Source: a virus
Reading direction: 5' to 3' (one strand)
Virus genome (UHGV): UHGV-0142489
DNA: 16,164 nucleotides
Below, piece by piece: positions 1-10,108 of this stretch. Position 1 is the stretch's first letter. Each line of letters starts with the position of its first letter. A model generated the notes under the pieces. That model ran no database searches and was not told the DNA's origin. It worked only from the letters and a program-made list of their open reading frames with translations. Both the position numbers and the translations under genes were made by a program.

Positions 1-140
1 TGATTGAAATCAAAATAACGATGGGTTTATTATTACCAAAATGGTAAATTTACAACCCATTCCCATTGTGCCATAGTAATCGGGCACTGGCAAAATCCAG
101 TGCCGGGATTGGCGTCCTGGGTTACTACAGAGGCACATAT

Positions 141-160
141 GCCGCATAAGCGGTTTTTTT
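141..160 (+). terminator. Weak candidate intrinsic terminator at the extreme 5' end of the window
   Basis: 4-bp GC stem ccgc(142-145)/gcgg(150-153) with ataa loop, followed by seven consecutive T (154-160). The stem is short, so this is weak; it would end a transcript arriving from upstream of the window. Confidence 0.3.
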
Positions 161-313
161 ATGTGTAAAGCGCACCTATTCTATGGTGGGCTGTGTGGGG
201 GCACCGAAAGGTGCGCCGGGTCCTTTGTAGCCGGTTACGCCAACCCTGCACAGTTCACCACCAACCGATTGGCGTCGGTAGTGGTGATTAACCTAACTAC
301 AAAGGTGATCACT

Positions 314-1000: not shown

Positions 1001-1042
1001 CGGCGGCGGCACAGGGATGTGCCTTTAAATAATTCTGTACGA

Positions 1043-1101
1043 TTGCAGACCGGGGGTGAATAGCGTACTATTACCTTAAAGGTAAACCATGTGTTTACAT
1101 G
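1043..1101 (+). promoter_or_regulatory. Candidate sigma70-like promoter with two adjacent palindromes (possible operator) upstream of the 69-aa gene
   Basis: TTGCAG (1043-1048), 17-bp spacer, TACTAT (1066-1071). Perfect 7-bp inverted repeat TTACCTT-a-AAGGTAA (1071-1085) begins at the end of the -10. Second palindrome CATGT-gttt-ACATG (1088-1101) abuts the GAGGAGGAG ribosome-binding site (1101-1109). Confidence 0.3.
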
Positions 1102-1111
1102 AGGAGGAGAT

Positions 1112-1321
1112 ATGGGATTTTGGTTCGCTCGTACAAAAACGAGGGATAATGCACCCAGCCCTCAGGCAAAAAATGCAGAAGTTCCGGCGTCAGCGCAGGT
1201 TAACAAGCGTGGTGGTGTGTATATCTCATCACAGCAAATTTCTGAGCTTCCTGAGGTTAAGGAGATGCGTCGTCTCGCTGCTGCAATCGTTAAACAGGAT
1301 CTTGCCACTGTAAGGAAATAG
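1112..1321 (+). CDS. Small hypothetical protein, 69 aa, soluble
   Basis: ATG at 1112 preceded by an exceptionally strong Shine-Dalgarno GAGGAGGAG (1101-1109). Balanced, hydrophilic composition. TAG stop (1319-1321) overlaps the GTG start of the next gene by 1 nt. A hand-counted 100-nt sample (1141-1240) has 50 G+C, like the phage backbone. Confidence 0.65.
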   Translation: MGFWFARTKTRDNAPSPQAKNAEVPASAQVNKRGGVYISSQQISELPEVKEMRRLAAAIVKQDLATVRK

Positions 1322-2184
1322 TGTTGTTAGCTCTTCTAATTATCCCCATTCTGGTTAGTGGTTATATTATGATAACCGCTAACCAGTATCATTATTTCCG
1401 TTTATACCGACATGAAGGCCAGCTTCTTTATATGAAAGTAGCTGCATTAGGTACATATTGCCTTGTTGCTTCGGTAATAATTGCCGCATTTATAAAATAT
1501 AAATATCCTGATTTTCACCTAGTTCACGATATGGTGGAAACTTTTAATGTAACGTCAAAACCAGAAACAGATAGAATTTACATGTGGCTACTTCTTCTGT
1601 CAGTCACATCAATTTGCTTCTCTTTGTGTTATGTATCTTTTGTTTGGCTAAAAGATCTTCTTTTAGGTTGTTTTTATAAACGTGATATTTATGACAAAAT
1701 ATCAGAGGCAATGAAAGCTAGGGTATTGCGAAAAACGTACTCCCAGGGTTCTTTAGATTTGCTATTGCTTGATGCAATCGAATCAGATCCTAAGAAACCA
1801 ATGTTAATTACTTTATCATCAAATAAAGTATACGTTGGAATAATAAATGGTTCTGGTGAGCCAACGGAAAATCAAGGGCCACACCAACACATATCTTTTG
1901 TTCCTTTAATGTCAGGGTACAGAAACAAAGAAAATTTATCTGTTACATTTACAAACGCTTACCCAGGTGAAATCCAAATTAAGCGCAGTGCTGCGATAAA
2001 AGGGATAAGCAAAAAGAAAGTTCAAGGTCTAGAAATTATGGTATCTATAGACGAAATAAGTCATATATCATGGTTTGACTTTGAAGTATATAAGGCAACA
2101 AATAACAAAGTAGAAACAAAGGGGCATGTTGTTAATGTGACCAAAAATGGTCGCAACATATACTACAGAAGTGGCAGGAAATAA
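1321..2184 (+). CDS. Hypothetical membrane protein, 287 aa: three N-terminal TM helices plus ~175-aa cytoplasmic domain of unknown function
   Basis: GTG start at 1321 with AAGGA (1312-1316) upstream. Hydrophobic segments LLALLIIPILVSGYIMI, VAALGTYCLVASVIIAAFI and MWLLLLSVTSICFSLCYVSFVWL, followed by a basic stretch (KDLLLGCFYKRDIYDK), which by the positive-inside rule places the C-terminal domain in the cytoplasm. AT-rich (38 G+C in 1321-1420, hand count). An alternative start at ATG 1366 would delete the first helix. Confidence 0.7.
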   Translation: MLLALLIIPILVSGYIMITANQYHYFRLYRHEGQLLYMKVAALGTYCLVASVIIAAFIKYKYPDFHLVHDMVETFNVTSKPETDRIYMWLLLLSVTSICFSLCYVSFVWLKDLLLGCFYKRDIYDKISEAMKARVLRKTYSQGSLDLLLLDAIESDPKKPMLITLSSNKVYVGIINGSGEPTENQGPHQHISFVPLMSGYRNKENLSVTFTNAYPGEIQIKRSAAIKGISKKKVQGLEIMVSIDEISHISWFDFEVYKATNNKVETKGHVVNVTKNGRNIYYRSGRK

Positions 2185-2209
2185 ATTTTACGCAGTTTAG
2201 GTGGCTTAT

Positions 2210-2713
2210 ATGGATAATACTATCTTAGGCGCATTGATAGGTGCAGTTATTGCTATAGTTTCCACTTATATAAATGCAAGACAAGGATACAAAAACAGCA
2301 TAAGATTAGAGCGACAAAAAATATTAAGGGATAAACGCGAGCAATTATTTATAAATTGTATACTTGCTGAAAAAGTCATAAATTCAAGCGCAATTACCAT
2401 TCTCAATTTTGTAAAAAATGCCAGATACCACTCTGATAGTAAATTTGACGTATCAAGAGCGAATCCGTTGCAAACGATGGAAATGCTAATAAACATATAC
2501 CTTCCTGAGTATAAAAAAGAATTACAAGAACTCAATAATGCGTATCAAGAATTTCACAAATACTACTCTCAATATACATGTGCACATACCTTCAAAAATA
2601 TGCCTGATAATGAGAAGTCGAAGTTTATTGAGGAGGCTGATTTTTATGCAAAAAAGATATATGGCAAACTTAATGATATTAAGGACAAGATATCATTTAA
2701 CTCAATAGTATAA
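2210..2713 (+). CDS. Hypothetical membrane-anchored protein, 167 aa: single N-terminal TM helix plus helical K/E/N/Y-rich cytoplasmic domain
   Basis: ORF-track frame 2201..2713 begins at a GTG that is part of the AGGTGG Shine-Dalgarno (2199-2204); the in-frame ATG at 2210 sits 5 nt downstream and is the likelier start. TM segment ILGALIGAVIAIVSTYI followed by basic NARQGYKNSIRLERQKILRDKREQ. Very AT-rich (34 G+C in 2221-2320, hand count). Confidence 0.7.
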   Translation: MDNTILGALIGAVIAIVSTYINARQGYKNSIRLERQKILRDKREQLFINCILAEKVINSSAITILNFVKNARYHSDSKFDVSRANPLQTMEMLINIYLPEYKKELQELNNAYQEFHKYYSQYTCAHTFKNMPDNEKSKFIEEADFYAKKIYGKLNDIKDKISFNSIV

Positions 2714-2788
2714 CAGCGATACTGCCGCTGACGGCTCCCGCTGCGGTGGGCGTTCTGCGGATTCCCGCCCGGGCGGCGGTGGCATTCG

Positions 2789-2815
2789 TTAAAAACAAGG
2801 CCGCGAAAGCGGCCT
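2789..2815 (-). terminator. Intrinsic terminator closing the minus-strand virion operon
   Basis: Perfect 7-bp GC-rich stem AGGCCGC/GCGGCCT with GAAA tetraloop (plus-strand 2798-2815). On the minus strand the hairpin is followed directly by TGTTTTTAAC. It lies 9 nt downstream of the TGA stop of the 98-aa gene (2824-2826). Confidence 0.65.
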
Positions 2816-2823
2816 GTGACATG

Positions 2824-3120
2824 TCACGTTCCTTTTCTGAATGATAGCCGTTCGAAAAATGATGACATTCCACCGCAGACAATAGCAAAGATGATCCCAC
2901 CAAAGAAGAGAAGGCCAGCCTGCCACCACTCCCACCGCCATACATCCACAGCACCAACCATACCAACAATCGCTCCAACAAATGGAATATAGCTCACGAT
3001 GAAAGCAATGGGGGCTGCAATTATCCAGTGCAATCCCCACCATGATTCAAGCCCAGCCATAATTGCTGCCAACTGAAAAAGGCCAACGACGATATAAACA
3101 ATGAATCCTATCGCTTGCAT
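2824..3120 (-). CDS. Small integral membrane protein, 98 aa, three TM helices (holin-like topology or exclusion/immunity protein)
   Basis: ATG at 3120 with AGGTGA Shine-Dalgarno. Three hydrophobic helices separated by Trp-rich loops (ESWWGLHW, DVWRWEWWQ) and a short basic C-terminal tail (ERLSFRKGT). Last gene before the operon terminator. The two overlapping alternative-frame ORFs in the track were not chosen. Confidence 0.7.
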   Translation of the reverse strand: MQAIGFIVYIVVGLFQLAAIMAGLESWWGLHWIIAAPIAFIVSYIPFVGAIVGMVGAVDVWRWEWWQAGLLFFGGIIFAIVCGGMSSFFERLSFRKGT

Positions 3121-3132
3121 GTAGTCACCTAT

Positions 3133-3306
3133 TTACCCAGTAAAAATCAGAGGCCTCCCCTCAATAAGGCTTGCAACAAGAACTATTCCCTGCACAACAA
3201 AGATGAACCAGCAAATAGCTTGAGTCTGAGGGTTAAGAAAATATTTGTAGCGGTCAATAAATAACAACCCACCAGAAATTATCACACTCAAAATAATTAA
3301 AAACAC
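3133..3306 (-). CDS. Possible small two-TM membrane protein, 57 aa (not in the supplied ORF track)
   Basis: My own translation of the minus strand: GTG at 3306-3304 preceded by AAGGAAG, reading (M)FLIILSVIISGGLLFIDRYKYFLNPQTQAICWFIFVVQGIVLVASLIEGRPLIFTG and ending at TAA 3135-3133. No ATG is present in the frame, and AT-rich DNA gives hydrophobic codons by chance, so confidence is low. Confidence 0.3.
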   Translation of the reverse strand: MFLIILSVIISGGLLFIDRYKYFLNPQTQAICWFIFVVQGIVLVASLIEGRPLIFTG

Positions 3307-7598: not shown

Positions 7599-10108
7599 TG
7601 CGGAATATCTCCGGAGAATCTCTGACGCTTCTGTGTCAGATCAAGAACAACAGGAGAACCATCATCTTTCAGCAGATAACCAGTACCAAGTTTCACCAGG
7701 TACTGACTATCGCCGTAACTTTGCAAACCATACTGACCAGGCGGTGTTTTTATCCCGGTGCCGACCACTTGTTCATTCCAAGCCTGATTAACCTGCTTAT
7801 CGAATTGCTCTGCAGACATTCCCCACGGCAAAAGGACATTCCCCATTCCGTTATAGTCATGCACGCCACCTGTAGCTACGTTAACAGCCTGCTTCCAGAT
7901 ATCAGTGTCAATTTCGCCTGATATCACGCCTTTTTTCGCCATCACACCAGCGTAATAGTCCTTTGCGATCTCGTATGCCATTGATGCCCCCTGAGCATCA
8001 CCAGCAAATGCATCCTTCACCATGTCAGAAAACTCAAGGCGAAGATCAGCATCTTTAGGCATCGGAATACCTTTCGCATCATCAGTACCTTTACGAGCCG
8101 CCGCGCCAGTAAGAATTGTCTGCGCAGCGGTTTCAGGAGACACGGAAACATCCGGATTAAACCAGTTTTTTTCTGCCAAAATACCACCAGGCTTGTCCAT
8201 CAGTATCCCGGCAACGGCAGCAGATGGAGCGTTGGCACTGATCTGCTGTAGTGCTGACATATACACCTGCCCACCACCAGTGCTCTGCCTGATGGTATCG
8301 AGATATGCTGCCTGTTGGGAAACTGGAGCATCACGAAAGAAAACACCGATCTGATTGGCCTCGTCTTTGGAAAAGAACGTCAGTGGAGTGCCATATGACT
8401 TAGCAAGGTCACTGACCTGAGCAGCACGCAAGGCAACGCTCTGTCCAAAGTTATCCTTATTGCTCATGTCGATAGGCTTTGCCTGTCCGGCGGCAAGAGA
8501 GAACTGTACAGGATCAGCCTGTCGCTGCTTTATCACCTGACTTGCAGCCGACACAACGTTGTCATAAAGAGCGGCTCGTGCCGCATAACCCTCCCCTGTC
8601 TCACCAGTATCCGGGCGTAATTGCTCAACATATGCTGTAATGCTGCTTGTCGGCATGTTGCGGAAAGAGCCTATATACTGTCCGGCGATTTGCGTATTTC
8701 TGAACTCGGTATATCGCAGGTTTCCTTCTCTGACTCCATAAGCTGCAATAAAATCAGCCTCACCAGGTGGGTTAGGAAATTCAACGCCCCGCATATACGC
8801 AGCTGTCGCATCGCGAACCTTGCTGTCAATCATCGTTTTATATTCAGCCTGCTGCTGCCGACGCAGTTGATCCGCCTGTCGCATAAAACTTGCCTGCGCC
8901 TCAGGAGATGCCGCATCGAATGCTGCATTACCGGTATAGCGTTTGGTGTTGGTTGGAATTGTTGATAAACCAAGTGCTGCACTGACACCAGCAGTTAACT
9001 GCTGATCACTGTATGGCTGGCTACCGTTCTCATGATGGATAATGGCTGCACAAAGCGCCTTCAGGGTATCAGGATTTGATGCATCGAGAGGCTCATCAGC
9101 AGAAACGCCAAGTTGTTCGCACACTGCTTTGATATACGACATAGTGTCATTTTTATCAGTAGGCGGTGCCCAGCGATTAATTATCTCGCTGACGGTATCA
9201 ATACCCTGCCGCTGATACGACATCAGGTTCCGCCCTAATGCACGAATCCCGTGTTCAGGTGTTTCGAATTTAGCAAATCTACCATCATCACCGGTCTGGC
9301 CTACCCACGGATTAGTTTTGCTGTATTCGAGATTTCCGGGGTTATTGTTGCGTATGCCACGGACACGCTCGGAAGAGCCACTATCTGTTACAGCACGGCG
9401 AGCTCCAGCAGCAGTATCACTTAACTCGCCATTACTTTGGATGAATGCGGTCGCATTGTTTGCCGACCACTGGGACAATGCTGCATCAGCAACCTTCTCT
9501 TTAAACTCGATTTTCTTGGTCTGTATTTGCTCGTCGCTCCAGCCATGTGCAGCACCGTACTCCTCAATTTGCTGGAAAGTTTGCTTATTAGCCAATACGT
9601 ATGCGGCATTGTCGCCATACAATGCTGCGGCATTTTTACCATTGTTCAGCAGCGTCGCCTGAAACTGACCTTCTTCGTAGGCATTAATTTGCCCTATCTC
9701 GTGCCGCCCGGCCTGCGTAGTGAACTGAATGCGCTGCTGCTGCGCCTGCTGCATGAAAGCATTACGAGCCTGTTCATCCGGCAGCGACATAGCCAGTTGT
9801 TCGACCTGAGCATCAAACTGCTGCGTATACTCATGGCCTTTTCCAATAGCATTTTTCCCTTTCAGGTTAAGCAAACCTGTTTCAGGGTTATTCAGCAGAT
9901 CACTGCTTATCTGACTGAGGTTAAGAGATGCCTCCTGAGCCAGAGCGATATTGGCACGCTGTTTTGCCTGCCCCAAAACATCAATTGCCTCTGTCCCTGC
10001 CCGAACAAAAGCATCACCAATACCTGGCTGAGAAAACGTCTGCAAGCCTGCTGACTGAACTCCACGGCTCTCAACCTGGCGTCCGGATACTGTTGGTACG
10101 ACTGGCAT
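7595..10108 (-). CDS. Large internal virion protein, 837 aa
   Basis: ORF-track frame 7595..10183 trimmed to the ATG at 10108, which has GGAGG 6 nt upstream and overlaps the TAA of the upstream gene by 1 nt (TAATG). The longer form would overlap the upstream gene by 76 nt. Contains a conserved-looking block GIRNNNPGNLEYSKTNPWVGQTGDDGRFAKFETPEHGIRALGRNL (residues ~250-295). Confidence 0.75.
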   Translation of the reverse strand: MPVVPTVSGRQVESRGVQSAGLQTFSQPGIGDAFVRAGTEAIDVLGQAKQRANIALAQEASLNLSQISSDLLNNPETGLLNLKGKNAIGKGHEYTQQFDAQVEQLAMSLPDEQARNAFMQQAQQQRIQFTTQAGRHEIGQINAYEEGQFQATLLNNGKNAAALYGDNAAYVLANKQTFQQIEEYGAAHGWSDEQIQTKKIEFKEKVADAALSQWSANNATAFIQSNGELSDTAAGARRAVTDSGSSERVRGIRNNNPGNLEYSKTNPWVGQTGDDGRFAKFETPEHGIRALGRNLMSYQRQGIDTVSEIINRWAPPTDKNDTMSYIKAVCEQLGVSADEPLDASNPDTLKALCAAIIHHENGSQPYSDQQLTAGVSAALGLSTIPTNTKRYTGNAAFDAASPEAQASFMRQADQLRRQQQAEYKTMIDSKVRDATAAYMRGVEFPNPPGEADFIAAYGVREGNLRYTEFRNTQIAGQYIGSFRNMPTSSITAYVEQLRPDTGETGEGYAARAALYDNVVSAASQVIKQRQADPVQFSLAAGQAKPIDMSNKDNFGQSVALRAAQVSDLAKSYGTPLTFFSKDEANQIGVFFRDAPVSQQAAYLDTIRQSTGGGQVYMSALQQISANAPSAAVAGILMDKPGGILAEKNWFNPDVSVSPETAAQTILTGAAARKGTDDAKGIPMPKDADLRLEFSDMVKDAFAGDAQGASMAYEIAKDYYAGVMAKKGVISGEIDTDIWKQAVNVATGGVHDYNGMGNVLLPWGMSAEQFDKQVNQAWNEQVVGTGIKTPPGQYGLQSYGDSQYLVKLGTGYLLKDDGSPVVLDLTQKRQRFSGDIPQ

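Follow-up and report, generated by a model that had tools for sequence, protein, structure and literature searches.

The 16,164-nucleotide stretch of the virus genome UHGV-0142489 analysed here (the window; all coordinates are window positions, unless a compared locus, L001 and so on, is named) contains at 1321-2713 a strikingly AT-rich region with two genes for membrane proteins of 287 and 167 residues. The window comes from an Escherichia coli prophage that resembles ε15 and TL-2011b (Uetakevirus-like). The question raised by this region is which of its genes belong together and what they may do. A preliminary description, based on the letters alone, had taken the 287-aa and 167-aa genes for one conserved two-gene accessory or defence cassette, with the 69-aa gene in front of them as an optional extra. 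Our results divide the region differently. Judged from sequence comparisons, it is the 69-aa and 287-aa genes that are conserved as a unit, which is translationally coupled and self-contained. In respect to function, the sequence and the structural model leave us evenly divided on whether this pair is a conflict module of the toxin-antitoxin-like (TA-like), abortive-infection or exclusion kind.

The 69-aa and 287-aa genes as one unit

The TAG stop codon of the 69-aa gene (1319-1321) shares one nucleotide with the GTG start codon of the 287-aa gene, and an AAGGA sequence is found 8 nt upstream. The arrangement is kept far beyond E. coli. Among 55 viral loci with the 287-aa family, taken from IMG/VR, a homologue of the small protein is encoded directly upstream in 52, and the other three are truncated at the contig start. 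The jackhmmer search started from the 69-aa protein places such a homologue directly upstream in about 50 of 61 loci drawn from a species-level genome collection, with a gap of -1 to 24 nt. The paired genome loci cover the Gamma-, Beta- and Alphaproteobacteria, Flavobacterium, and one Acidobacteria metagenome-assembled genome (MAG). Every 287-aa relative for which the context was read has an open reading frame (ORF) of 60-115 aa directly upstream; these contexts include ones from Providencia, Citrobacter, Pectobacterium, Symbiopectobacterium, and soil or plant metagenomes, and Vibrio cholerae fits as well. A second subfamily (Photorhabdus, Pantoea, Morganella, and a paralogue in E. coli) shows an ORF of 70-94 aa in the same place, which is too divergent for the hidden Markov model. 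The 69-aa gene is thus the regular partner of the 287-aa family and not the dispensable extra that it had been taken for.

No third gene is conserved next to the pair: the 139 nearest neighbours (two genes per side) from 36 diverse loci belong to 131 Pfam families. The losses run in one direction. An intact large gene lacking the small upstream ORF was not seen among the loci examined, and the small gene is intact with the large gene broken into short ORFs in Sodalis, two Arsenophonus genomes, and a Lautropia MAG (L026, L032, L037, L064). An orphan 69-aa gene (with the substitution R33C) lies beside a DUF2335 gene in E. coli 4/4 (L004, 3115-3324), where the large gene is lost.

The core motif of the small protein reads RVxxRGxVxI-x(3)-E(I/V)-...-E(V/F)K-...-A..IV, and the enterobacterial and metagenome relatives have RVGxRGxVYIPSxEIAxLPEVKEMQ in common. 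The protein has no match in Pfam, NCBIfam or PADLOC (E <= 1), or in the PDB. A kinship with AbrB/MazE-like antitoxins, considered on account of the RGGVYIPSxEI segment, was dropped, with none of 26 homologues matching a Pfam family of this type.

A small upstream gene, coupled to a larger downstream gene and inherited together with it, is the layout of a type II TA system such as the YafO-like pair of phage TL-2011b. The likeness extends to the overlap of the two genes, the self-contained and mobile character of the unit, the retention of orphan small genes (and never of orphan large ones), and the prophage slot itself, of which the YafO-like pair is the commonest occupant. The 69-aa/287-aa pair could therefore be read as a pure addiction module, acting by post-segregational killing with no anti-phage role, and its carriage by prophages and by a presumed integrative and conjugative element (ICE) agrees with this. 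The putative toxin would however be a 287-aa protein with three transmembrane (TM) helices and a folded cytoplasmic domain, unlike the known type II toxins; neither partner belongs to a toxin or antitoxin family in Pfam or NCBIfam, the small protein shows no match to ribbon-helix-helix (RHH), helix-turn-helix (HTH) or AbrB domains, and many copies are chromosomal, at stable loci. TA and abortive-infection roles can also coexist. We regard addiction alone as an unlikely account, although one to be taken seriously.

The 167-aa gene as a separate add-on

The distribution of the 167-aa gene is quite different. In a set of 5426 complete E. coli genomes we count 28 with the 287-aa gene, of which only 8 have the 167-aa gene as well; in the remaining 20, the 69-aa gene and a 288-aa version of the large gene are followed by an intact 53-aa gene. 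Next to members of the 287-aa family, the 167-aa gene is found in 5 of the 55 viral loci and in none of the 61 genome loci. Its family comprises only 13 clusters, essentially from E. coli. Relatives with 54-57% identity follow other genes, a DUF4760 gene in L022 and, in L020, an ORF whose C-terminus is unrelated. Because of this weak co-occurrence and of the relatives placed behind other genes, the 167-aa gene is treated as a separate add-on moron. The segment 2185-2712 replaces about 178 nt of L002 as a clean indel, and the insertion displaced the 5' part of the 53-aa gene usual for this slot, of which a 3' remnant is left (Table 1).

The idea that the 287-aa and 167-aa genes form one defence or exclusion cassette, for which the 69-aa gene is not needed, started from their adjacency (25-nt spacer), common strand, and AT-richness, and it is true that the close homologues of the 167-aa gene (at least 84% identical) for which the context was read all follow a 287-aa gene. 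It is largely refuted by the co-occurrence check, in which the 167-aa gene is missing from 20 of the 28 E. coli genomes, 50 of the 55 viral loci, and all 61 genome loci, and it is further undercut by the clean indel, by the more distant homologues behind other genes, and by one strain in which the large gene is intact beside a probably frameshifted 167-aa copy. We consider it very improbable.

The strain in question is E. coli A0 34/86 (NZ_CP120567.1, 1690079-1690590), where the 167-aa copy aligns over 512 bases of the record against 513 of the query and has no annotated coding sequence; it is probably a frameshifted pseudogene.

The start codon of the 167-aa gene is preceded by an AGGTGG Shine-Dalgarno sequence and is the one annotated by RefSeq in L001. 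The single TM helix of the protein is N-terminal; behind it come a basic stretch and a part that is all-helical, and the topology is N-out/C-in. The AlphaFold2 (AF2) model of the protein has a mean predicted local distance difference test (pLDDT) score of 76.7, and Foldseek returns generic helical bundles only (E >= 0.27). As the preliminary description had argued, the protein is not an i-spanin: the topology is against it, and the complete lysis cassette of the prophage is located elsewhere (two holins, a GH19 endolysin, and a DUF2514 protein, which we take to be Rz/i-spanin-like). The test for holin or spanin character gave only a weak PHROG holin match over the TM helix (E = 0.013). DUF4760 proteins, themselves an uncharacterised family, are similar in length and in having an N-terminal TM helix and a helical domain of ~140 aa, and their genes occur in the same prophage slot, in one case directly upstream of a 167-aa homologue. 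Kinship with them was ruled out (hhalign probability 0.4%, no match to PF15956 or any other Pfam family).

The cargo slot and its boundaries

The G+C content of 1321-2713 is 33.2%, as compared with an average of 52.3% (standard deviation 3.0, minimum 46.7%) for 240 other intervals of 1393 nt each, which corresponds to z = -6.3. The discontinuity reported before is therefore real, and the earlier hand counts of 38, 34 and 53 G+C per 100 nt (1321-1420, 2221-2320 and 8401-8500, respectively) were reproduced exactly. Individually, the 287-aa gene has 34.5% and the 167-aa gene 31.0% G+C, with a G+C content at third codon positions of 0.28-0.29. The 69-aa gene, at 48%, is not low in G+C, yet it lies inside the horizontally exchanged segment. 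In pairwise blastn comparisons with prophages that carry other cargo (L003, L139-L142), homology ends at ~1085-1090 and resumes at 2713 or, in two of them, at 2754, so that the exchanged unit is 1091-2712, with the 69-aa gene included.

The flanks of this slot are found in 494 of the 5426 E. coli genomes, and the full segment in only 8. Prophages with flanking regions 81-100% identical hold unrelated cargo, of at least six alternative types (Table 1), usually followed by a conserved gene for a 53-aa 'transmembrane anchored protein'. The latter is intact in L002, L003, L139, L140 and L142, as it is in prophages lacking the 167-aa gene. The earlier suggestion of a horizontally acquired moron is well supported by this dispensable, sharply bounded segment of 33% against 52% G+C, with other cargo in related prophages. 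As for an insertion signature, direct or inverted repeats around the cargo amount to short matches at chance level only. A PADLOC search of the alternative cargo gave no match. The slot is a cargo hotspot of ε15-like E. coli prophages (L003, L004, L139-L142), and with at least six unrelated types of small cargo it offers a handy natural library for exclusion or toxin functions. Two publications describe defence systems on prophages and conjugative elements, and AT-rich morons at fixed positions (PMC8791490, PMC3573123).

In one respect the placement has to be corrected. The segment was described as lying at the distal end of the virion operon, and it does adjoin the 3' end of that operon. The virion genes, however, run on the minus strand, the large ones from 3316 onward, whereas the cargo genes are on the plus strand; given also the terminator-like site at 2815-2798, the cargo is convergent with the virion operon and lies outside it.

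Table 1. Features in and around the cargo segment, in window positions, and the cargo found instead of it in related prophages
Feature	Position	Strand	Remarks
isrK-like RNA	84-160	+	Rfam RF01394, 72.2 bits
C4 antisense RNA	179-265	+	Rfam RF01695, 79.5 bits
Bro-N antirepressor gene, 228 aa	314-1000	+	Pfam Bro-N 8e-20; PHROG anti-repressor Ant; RefSeq start
Conserved left flank, antirepressor gene to cargo	1001-1090	+	kept in all cargo variants
Variable cargo segment	1091-2712	not applicable	homology boundaries by pairwise blastn
69-aa small soluble protein	1112-1321	+	phrog_5739, no assigned function
287-aa inner-membrane protein	1321-2184	+	GTG start; phrog_3630, no assigned function; AF2 model; candidate effector
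mRNA hairpin, 15-bp stem, 6-nt loop	1351-1386	+	fold and covariation
167-aa single-pass membrane protein, helical-bundle cytoplasmic domain	2210-2713	+	ATG start; phrog_36918, no assigned function
53-aa gene, 3' remnant	2718-2792	+	RefSeq pseudogene in L001
Terminator-like hairpin ending the virion operon, facing the cargo	2798-2815	-	AGGCCGCTTTCGCGGCCT then TGTTTTT
Alternative cargo: 59-aa gene + YafO-family toxin-like gene			TL-2011b; commonest type in the spread sample
Alternative cargo: DUF4760 protein, 179 aa			
Alternative cargo: DUF2335 protein, 171 aa			
Alternative cargo: hypothetical protein, 210 aa			
Alternative cargo: 55-aa + 146-aa pair			

Occurrence on mobile elements and chromosomes

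The 69-aa/287-aa module travels in several ways. In ε15-like prophages, including the same slot in Providencia, it is placed between the tailspike or antirepressor gene and the virion genes. In lambdoid or P22-like prophages (Citrobacter, Pectobacterium, metagenome) it is located at the prophage end, convergent with the integrase gene. It also occurs in chromosomal islets, where its neighbours vary from case to case. The module is poorer in G+C than its flanks in 49 of 50 loci, the mean difference being 6.6 points. One fixed chromosomal locus holds it in more than 10 species-level genomes of the Pseudomonas oryzihabitans group (L039-L049, L061, L062).

Several of the small ORFs in the latter group reach 113-115 codons by an extension at the 5' side, probably an artefact of ORF calling in DNA of high G+C content.

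The V. cholerae copy (L148-L150) consists of genes for 72 aa (7731-7949) and 319 aa (8001-8960) near the integrase gene of a presumed ICE, which encodes TraN and TraG.

The lambdoid prophages of E. coli carry a distant paralogue with 23% identity (L143-L147; 75 aa at 7767-7994 and 265 aa at 8001-8798). It stands directly after the antiterminator gene Q and before genes for a DNA methylase, a nanS-like protein, and lysis proteins, and it was found in 462 blocks of the collection. The position after Q is the place in which Shiga toxin (Stx) phages carry stx.

The position of this paralogue in the late region between Q and lysis is one argument for the possibility that the module serves the phage's own cycle, either in lysis timing (holin/antiholin-like), in a membrane change related to ejection, or as a helper of the antirepressor at induction. 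Further arguments are the location of the module downstream of an antirepressor gene controlled by c4/isrK, with no terminator-like site found in 1000-1112, and the weak holin likeness of the 167-aa TM helix. On the other hand, the module is dispensable, as seen from the prophages with 81-100% identical flanks and unrelated cargo; the lysis cassette is complete elsewhere; and many members of the family are found outside prophages. A role of this type is highly improbable in our estimation.

Predicted structure and family of the 287-aa protein

The hydrophobic segments of the 287-aa protein (1-19, 40-58 and 90-108), together with the K/R-rich stretches at 20-39 and after 109, indicate an N-out/C-in topology. 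The earlier predictions of three TM helices with the C-terminal part in the cytoplasm, and of a single N-terminal TM helix with a helical cytoplasmic part for the 167-aa protein, are both upheld. In the AF2 model (pLDDT 70.7) the TM helices comprise residues 2-20, 33-61 and 81-119, a helical linker follows at ~111-155, and the remainder contains a predicted Sm-like β-barrel (~157-215 and 239-255). The barrel shows the elements of the Sm/LSm fold, an N-terminal helix (145-154) and five strongly bent strands (160-165, 169-178, 190-201, 208-213 and 239-251), with strand pLDDT values of roughly 55-86 in blocks of 10 residues and a low-confidence insertion at 217-235. All of the top 50 Foldseek matches in the PDB are Sm or LSm proteins (probability ~1, E 5e-3 to 2e-2), with TM-scores over the target of 0.33-0.66, most of them within 0.5-0.66. 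The search of BFVD gave only uncharacterised small phage proteins, one of which is labelled Sm-like. Profile searches of the PDB sequences with the 287-aa, 69-aa and 167-aa families yielded chance matches only, with no Sm protein among them.

The prediction of an Sm-like cytoplasmic domain thus comes from the model, and in sequence and setting the domain differs from Sm/LSm/Hfq proteins: on reading of the alignment, its conserved motifs KVYVG and PLMSGYRxKD (K169, Y171, G173, P195, S198, G199, Y200, R201 and Y214) are unlike the Sm1/Sm2 RNA-binding motifs, the domain is tethered to the membrane, and it has an insertion between β4 and β5. Conservation is also high in TM1 and in the first cytoplasmic loop (ALLLIPILVSGY...GQxLY, G44), so that the membrane part is more than an anchor.

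The family is very large. When 1.84 billion representative proteins were searched with its profile, 2780 clusters (50% identity) were recovered at E <= 1e-3, and 1615 at E <= 1e-10. The 287-aa protein has no match in Pfam, NCBIfam or PADLOC, and 49 diverse members of its family have none beyond chance in Pfam or PADLOC; in their sources all 49 are named 'hypothetical protein', with no precomputed Pfam domain. The preliminary remark that no family motif is recognisable in the two membrane proteins therefore stands as far as named families are concerned, and has to be amended in that the 287-aa protein belongs to this unnamed family and has a predicted Sm-like domain. Families of lysis, LPS-modification or structural proteins in Pfam, PHROGs and NCBIfam gave no match to either membrane protein. 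No paper on the 69-aa, 287-aa or 167-aa families was found in the literature.

The topology (three TM helices, N-out/C-in), the length (287 vs 286 aa) and the cytoplasmic Sm-like β-domain recall the mechanosensitive channel MscS. Homology was ruled out, since hhalign gives a probability of 0.1% against E. coli MscS and Pfam MS_channel is not matched by any of the 49 members. The likeness invites the reading of the module as a lysogenic-conversion or physiological membrane function, namely a channel for ions or solutes or a device for envelope stress, of MscS/NfeD-like type and with a small regulatory subunit, and this would agree with the fixed locus in the P. oryzihabitans group and with neighbours that are mostly housekeeping genes. 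In addition to the lack of a sequence relationship, TM3 (MWLLLLSVTSICFSLCYVSFVWL) is not Gly/Ala-rich, a helical stretch of ~45 residues lies between it and the barrel, and the C-terminal α/β domain of MscS is absent, while a small partner gene is obligatory. The patchy occurrence, the AT-richness and the carriage by mobile elements also speak against such a function, which we hold to be quite unlikely.

A conserved hairpin in the 287-aa coding region

The mRNA for the beginning of the 287-aa protein contains a hairpin (Table 1). The fold of 1300-1400 has an energy of -32.6 kcal/mol (z = -6.2), and in the window fold the Shine-Dalgarno sequence and the GTG start codon (1314-1323) pair with 1390-1399. 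In an alignment of 23 distinct sequences 84% of the cells are paired, compensatory changes are present at two pairs (UA11/CG8/AU2 and CG8/UA8/UG5), and the covariation score is above those of all 500 shuffles and of all slid controls. The stem is formed by the codons for LVSGY and (I/V)xAN, of which the third positions of the Gly and Tyr codons (synonymous) covary with the first positions of the Ile, Val or Thr codons. The hairpin is kept in homologues from Providencia, Citrobacter and metagenomes (Enterobacterales) at ~45-55% protein identity, and it is absent in the Pseudomonas homologues.

Proposed function

The pair is a genuine accessory module, so far uncharacterised, of a kind already known, the two-gene membrane modules of mobile elements; the candidate is well delimited, but candidates of such sort are numerous. 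Its reading as a conflict module would be supported, by analogy, by the TA-like asymmetry with a small gene that outlasts the large one, as is typical of an antidote. The 1-nt overlap and the covarying hairpin suggest tight control of expression. The carriage on mobile elements, the patchiness, the AT-richness, the slot shared with toxin-like or small membrane genes, the conserved membrane part, and the predicted Sm-like fold point the same way. Among the nearest genes of the 36 loci (two per side) there are also strong matches, with E values of 1e-36 to 1e-107, to a cyclase with NucC of a cyclic oligonucleotide-based antiphage signalling system (CBASS), AbiEi with AbiEii, AbiLi, and AriA (PARIS), counted as raw occurrences.

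Several observations weigh against it. Antitoxin DNA-binding domains (RHH, HTH, AbrB) were searched for in the 26 homologues of the small protein, with scattered chance matches only. PADLOC-DB 2.0.0 gave no match for the 69-aa, 287-aa and 167-aa proteins at E <= 1, and for the 49 family members one at chance level (E = 0.009). The chromosomal neighbours of the module are mostly ordinary housekeeping genes. The fixed locus in the P. oryzihabitans group suits a vertically inherited physiological gene as well as a domesticated defence gene. Low G+C content is expected in part from the hydrophobic residues of a membrane protein. Finally, the Sm-like assignment derives from a model of medium confidence (pLDDT 70.7) and from Foldseek E values of only 5e-3 to 2e-2.

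The cargo 1091-2712, swapped into the slot downstream of the c4/isrK-controlled antirepressor gene, holds two independent units. If the first of them, the 69-aa/287-aa pair, is a conflict module, the 287-aa membrane protein would be the effector, assembling via its ring-prone Sm-like domain and the highly conserved TM1 and first loop; in its assembled form it may disturb the inner membrane or prevent entry. The 69-aa protein would be its obligatory regulator, either an antidote or a sensor. The second unit is the 167-aa protein, an E. coli-restricted moron inserted behind the first unit and wrecking the 5' part of the 53-aa gene; it is possibly another small membrane exclusion factor.

The closest precedent in genetic layout is RexA/RexB of phage lambda, a prophage-encoded two-component exclusion system. 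Both are dispensable two-gene prophage units of a soluble and a polytopic inner-membrane protein, in which the membrane protein is the proposed effector. They differ in that no sequence similarity exists (Pfam, no family at E <= 1 beyond chance) and the sizes are inverted, for the larger partner here is the membrane protein, whose cytoplasmic domain is folded, and the soluble one has only ~65 aa. In architecture, membrane effectors of CBASS and of the pyrimidine cyclase system for antiphage resistance (Pycsar), e.g. Cap15, combine TM helices with a small β-barrel. The 287-aa protein likewise has N-terminal TM helices and a small cytoplasmic β-barrel, possibly with a similar control of oligomerisation or membrane disruption; unlike these systems, the module has no cyclase or other nucleotide-signalling gene and no PADLOC match, and its partner protein has only ~65 aa.

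A more specific and rather less probable version is that the pair represents a new and widespread class of conflict system. A membrane-tethered Sm-like ring would be restrained or triggered by the ~65-aa partner and would form or gate a pore in the inner membrane, so that infection is aborted or incoming DNA excluded. No earlier defence effector would then be known to have an Sm-like ring as its basis, and the current defence catalogues would have missed a family of at least 2780 clusters. The broader reading as a conflict module, if true, would make a large 'hypothetical' two-gene family recognisable as an accessory system carried by prophages, ICEs and genomic islets in Proteobacteria and beyond, with an unusual effector architecture of three TM helices, an Sm-like barrel, and a tiny obligatory partner. 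In any case the unit for functional study shifts to 1112-2184, with the 167-aa gene as a separate matter.

Upstream control region and flanking genes

The two RNA elements at the left end of the window, with Rfam scores above the gathering scores in both cases, and a c4 a1b1 target at 71-123 (a sub-threshold Rfam match) are located upstream of the Bro-N gene. By their sequence, the elements in 71-265 are an antirepressor control unit, similar to immI of P1/P7 or to isrK of Gifsy. Their location implies that the ORF 161-1000 is probably mis-started, the likely start being the ATG at 314, and that the cargo slot forms the end of an antirepressor unit of immI type. The driver of cargo expression must reside in 1001-1090 or further upstream. 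A weak candidate for a sigma-70-like promoter (TTGCAG-17 nt-TACTAT, 1043-1071) was recognised by eye and is below the threshold of the promoter scan.

On the other side of the cargo, the virion operon ends with two small hydrophobic ORFs on the minus strand, 2824-3120 (98 aa) and 3133-3306 (57 aa). The former belongs to phrog_3075, with no assigned function, and shows a weak, sub-threshold similarity to a holin family. Related prophages differ at this position, with ORFs of 149 and 146 aa in L001 and one of 186 aa in L004.

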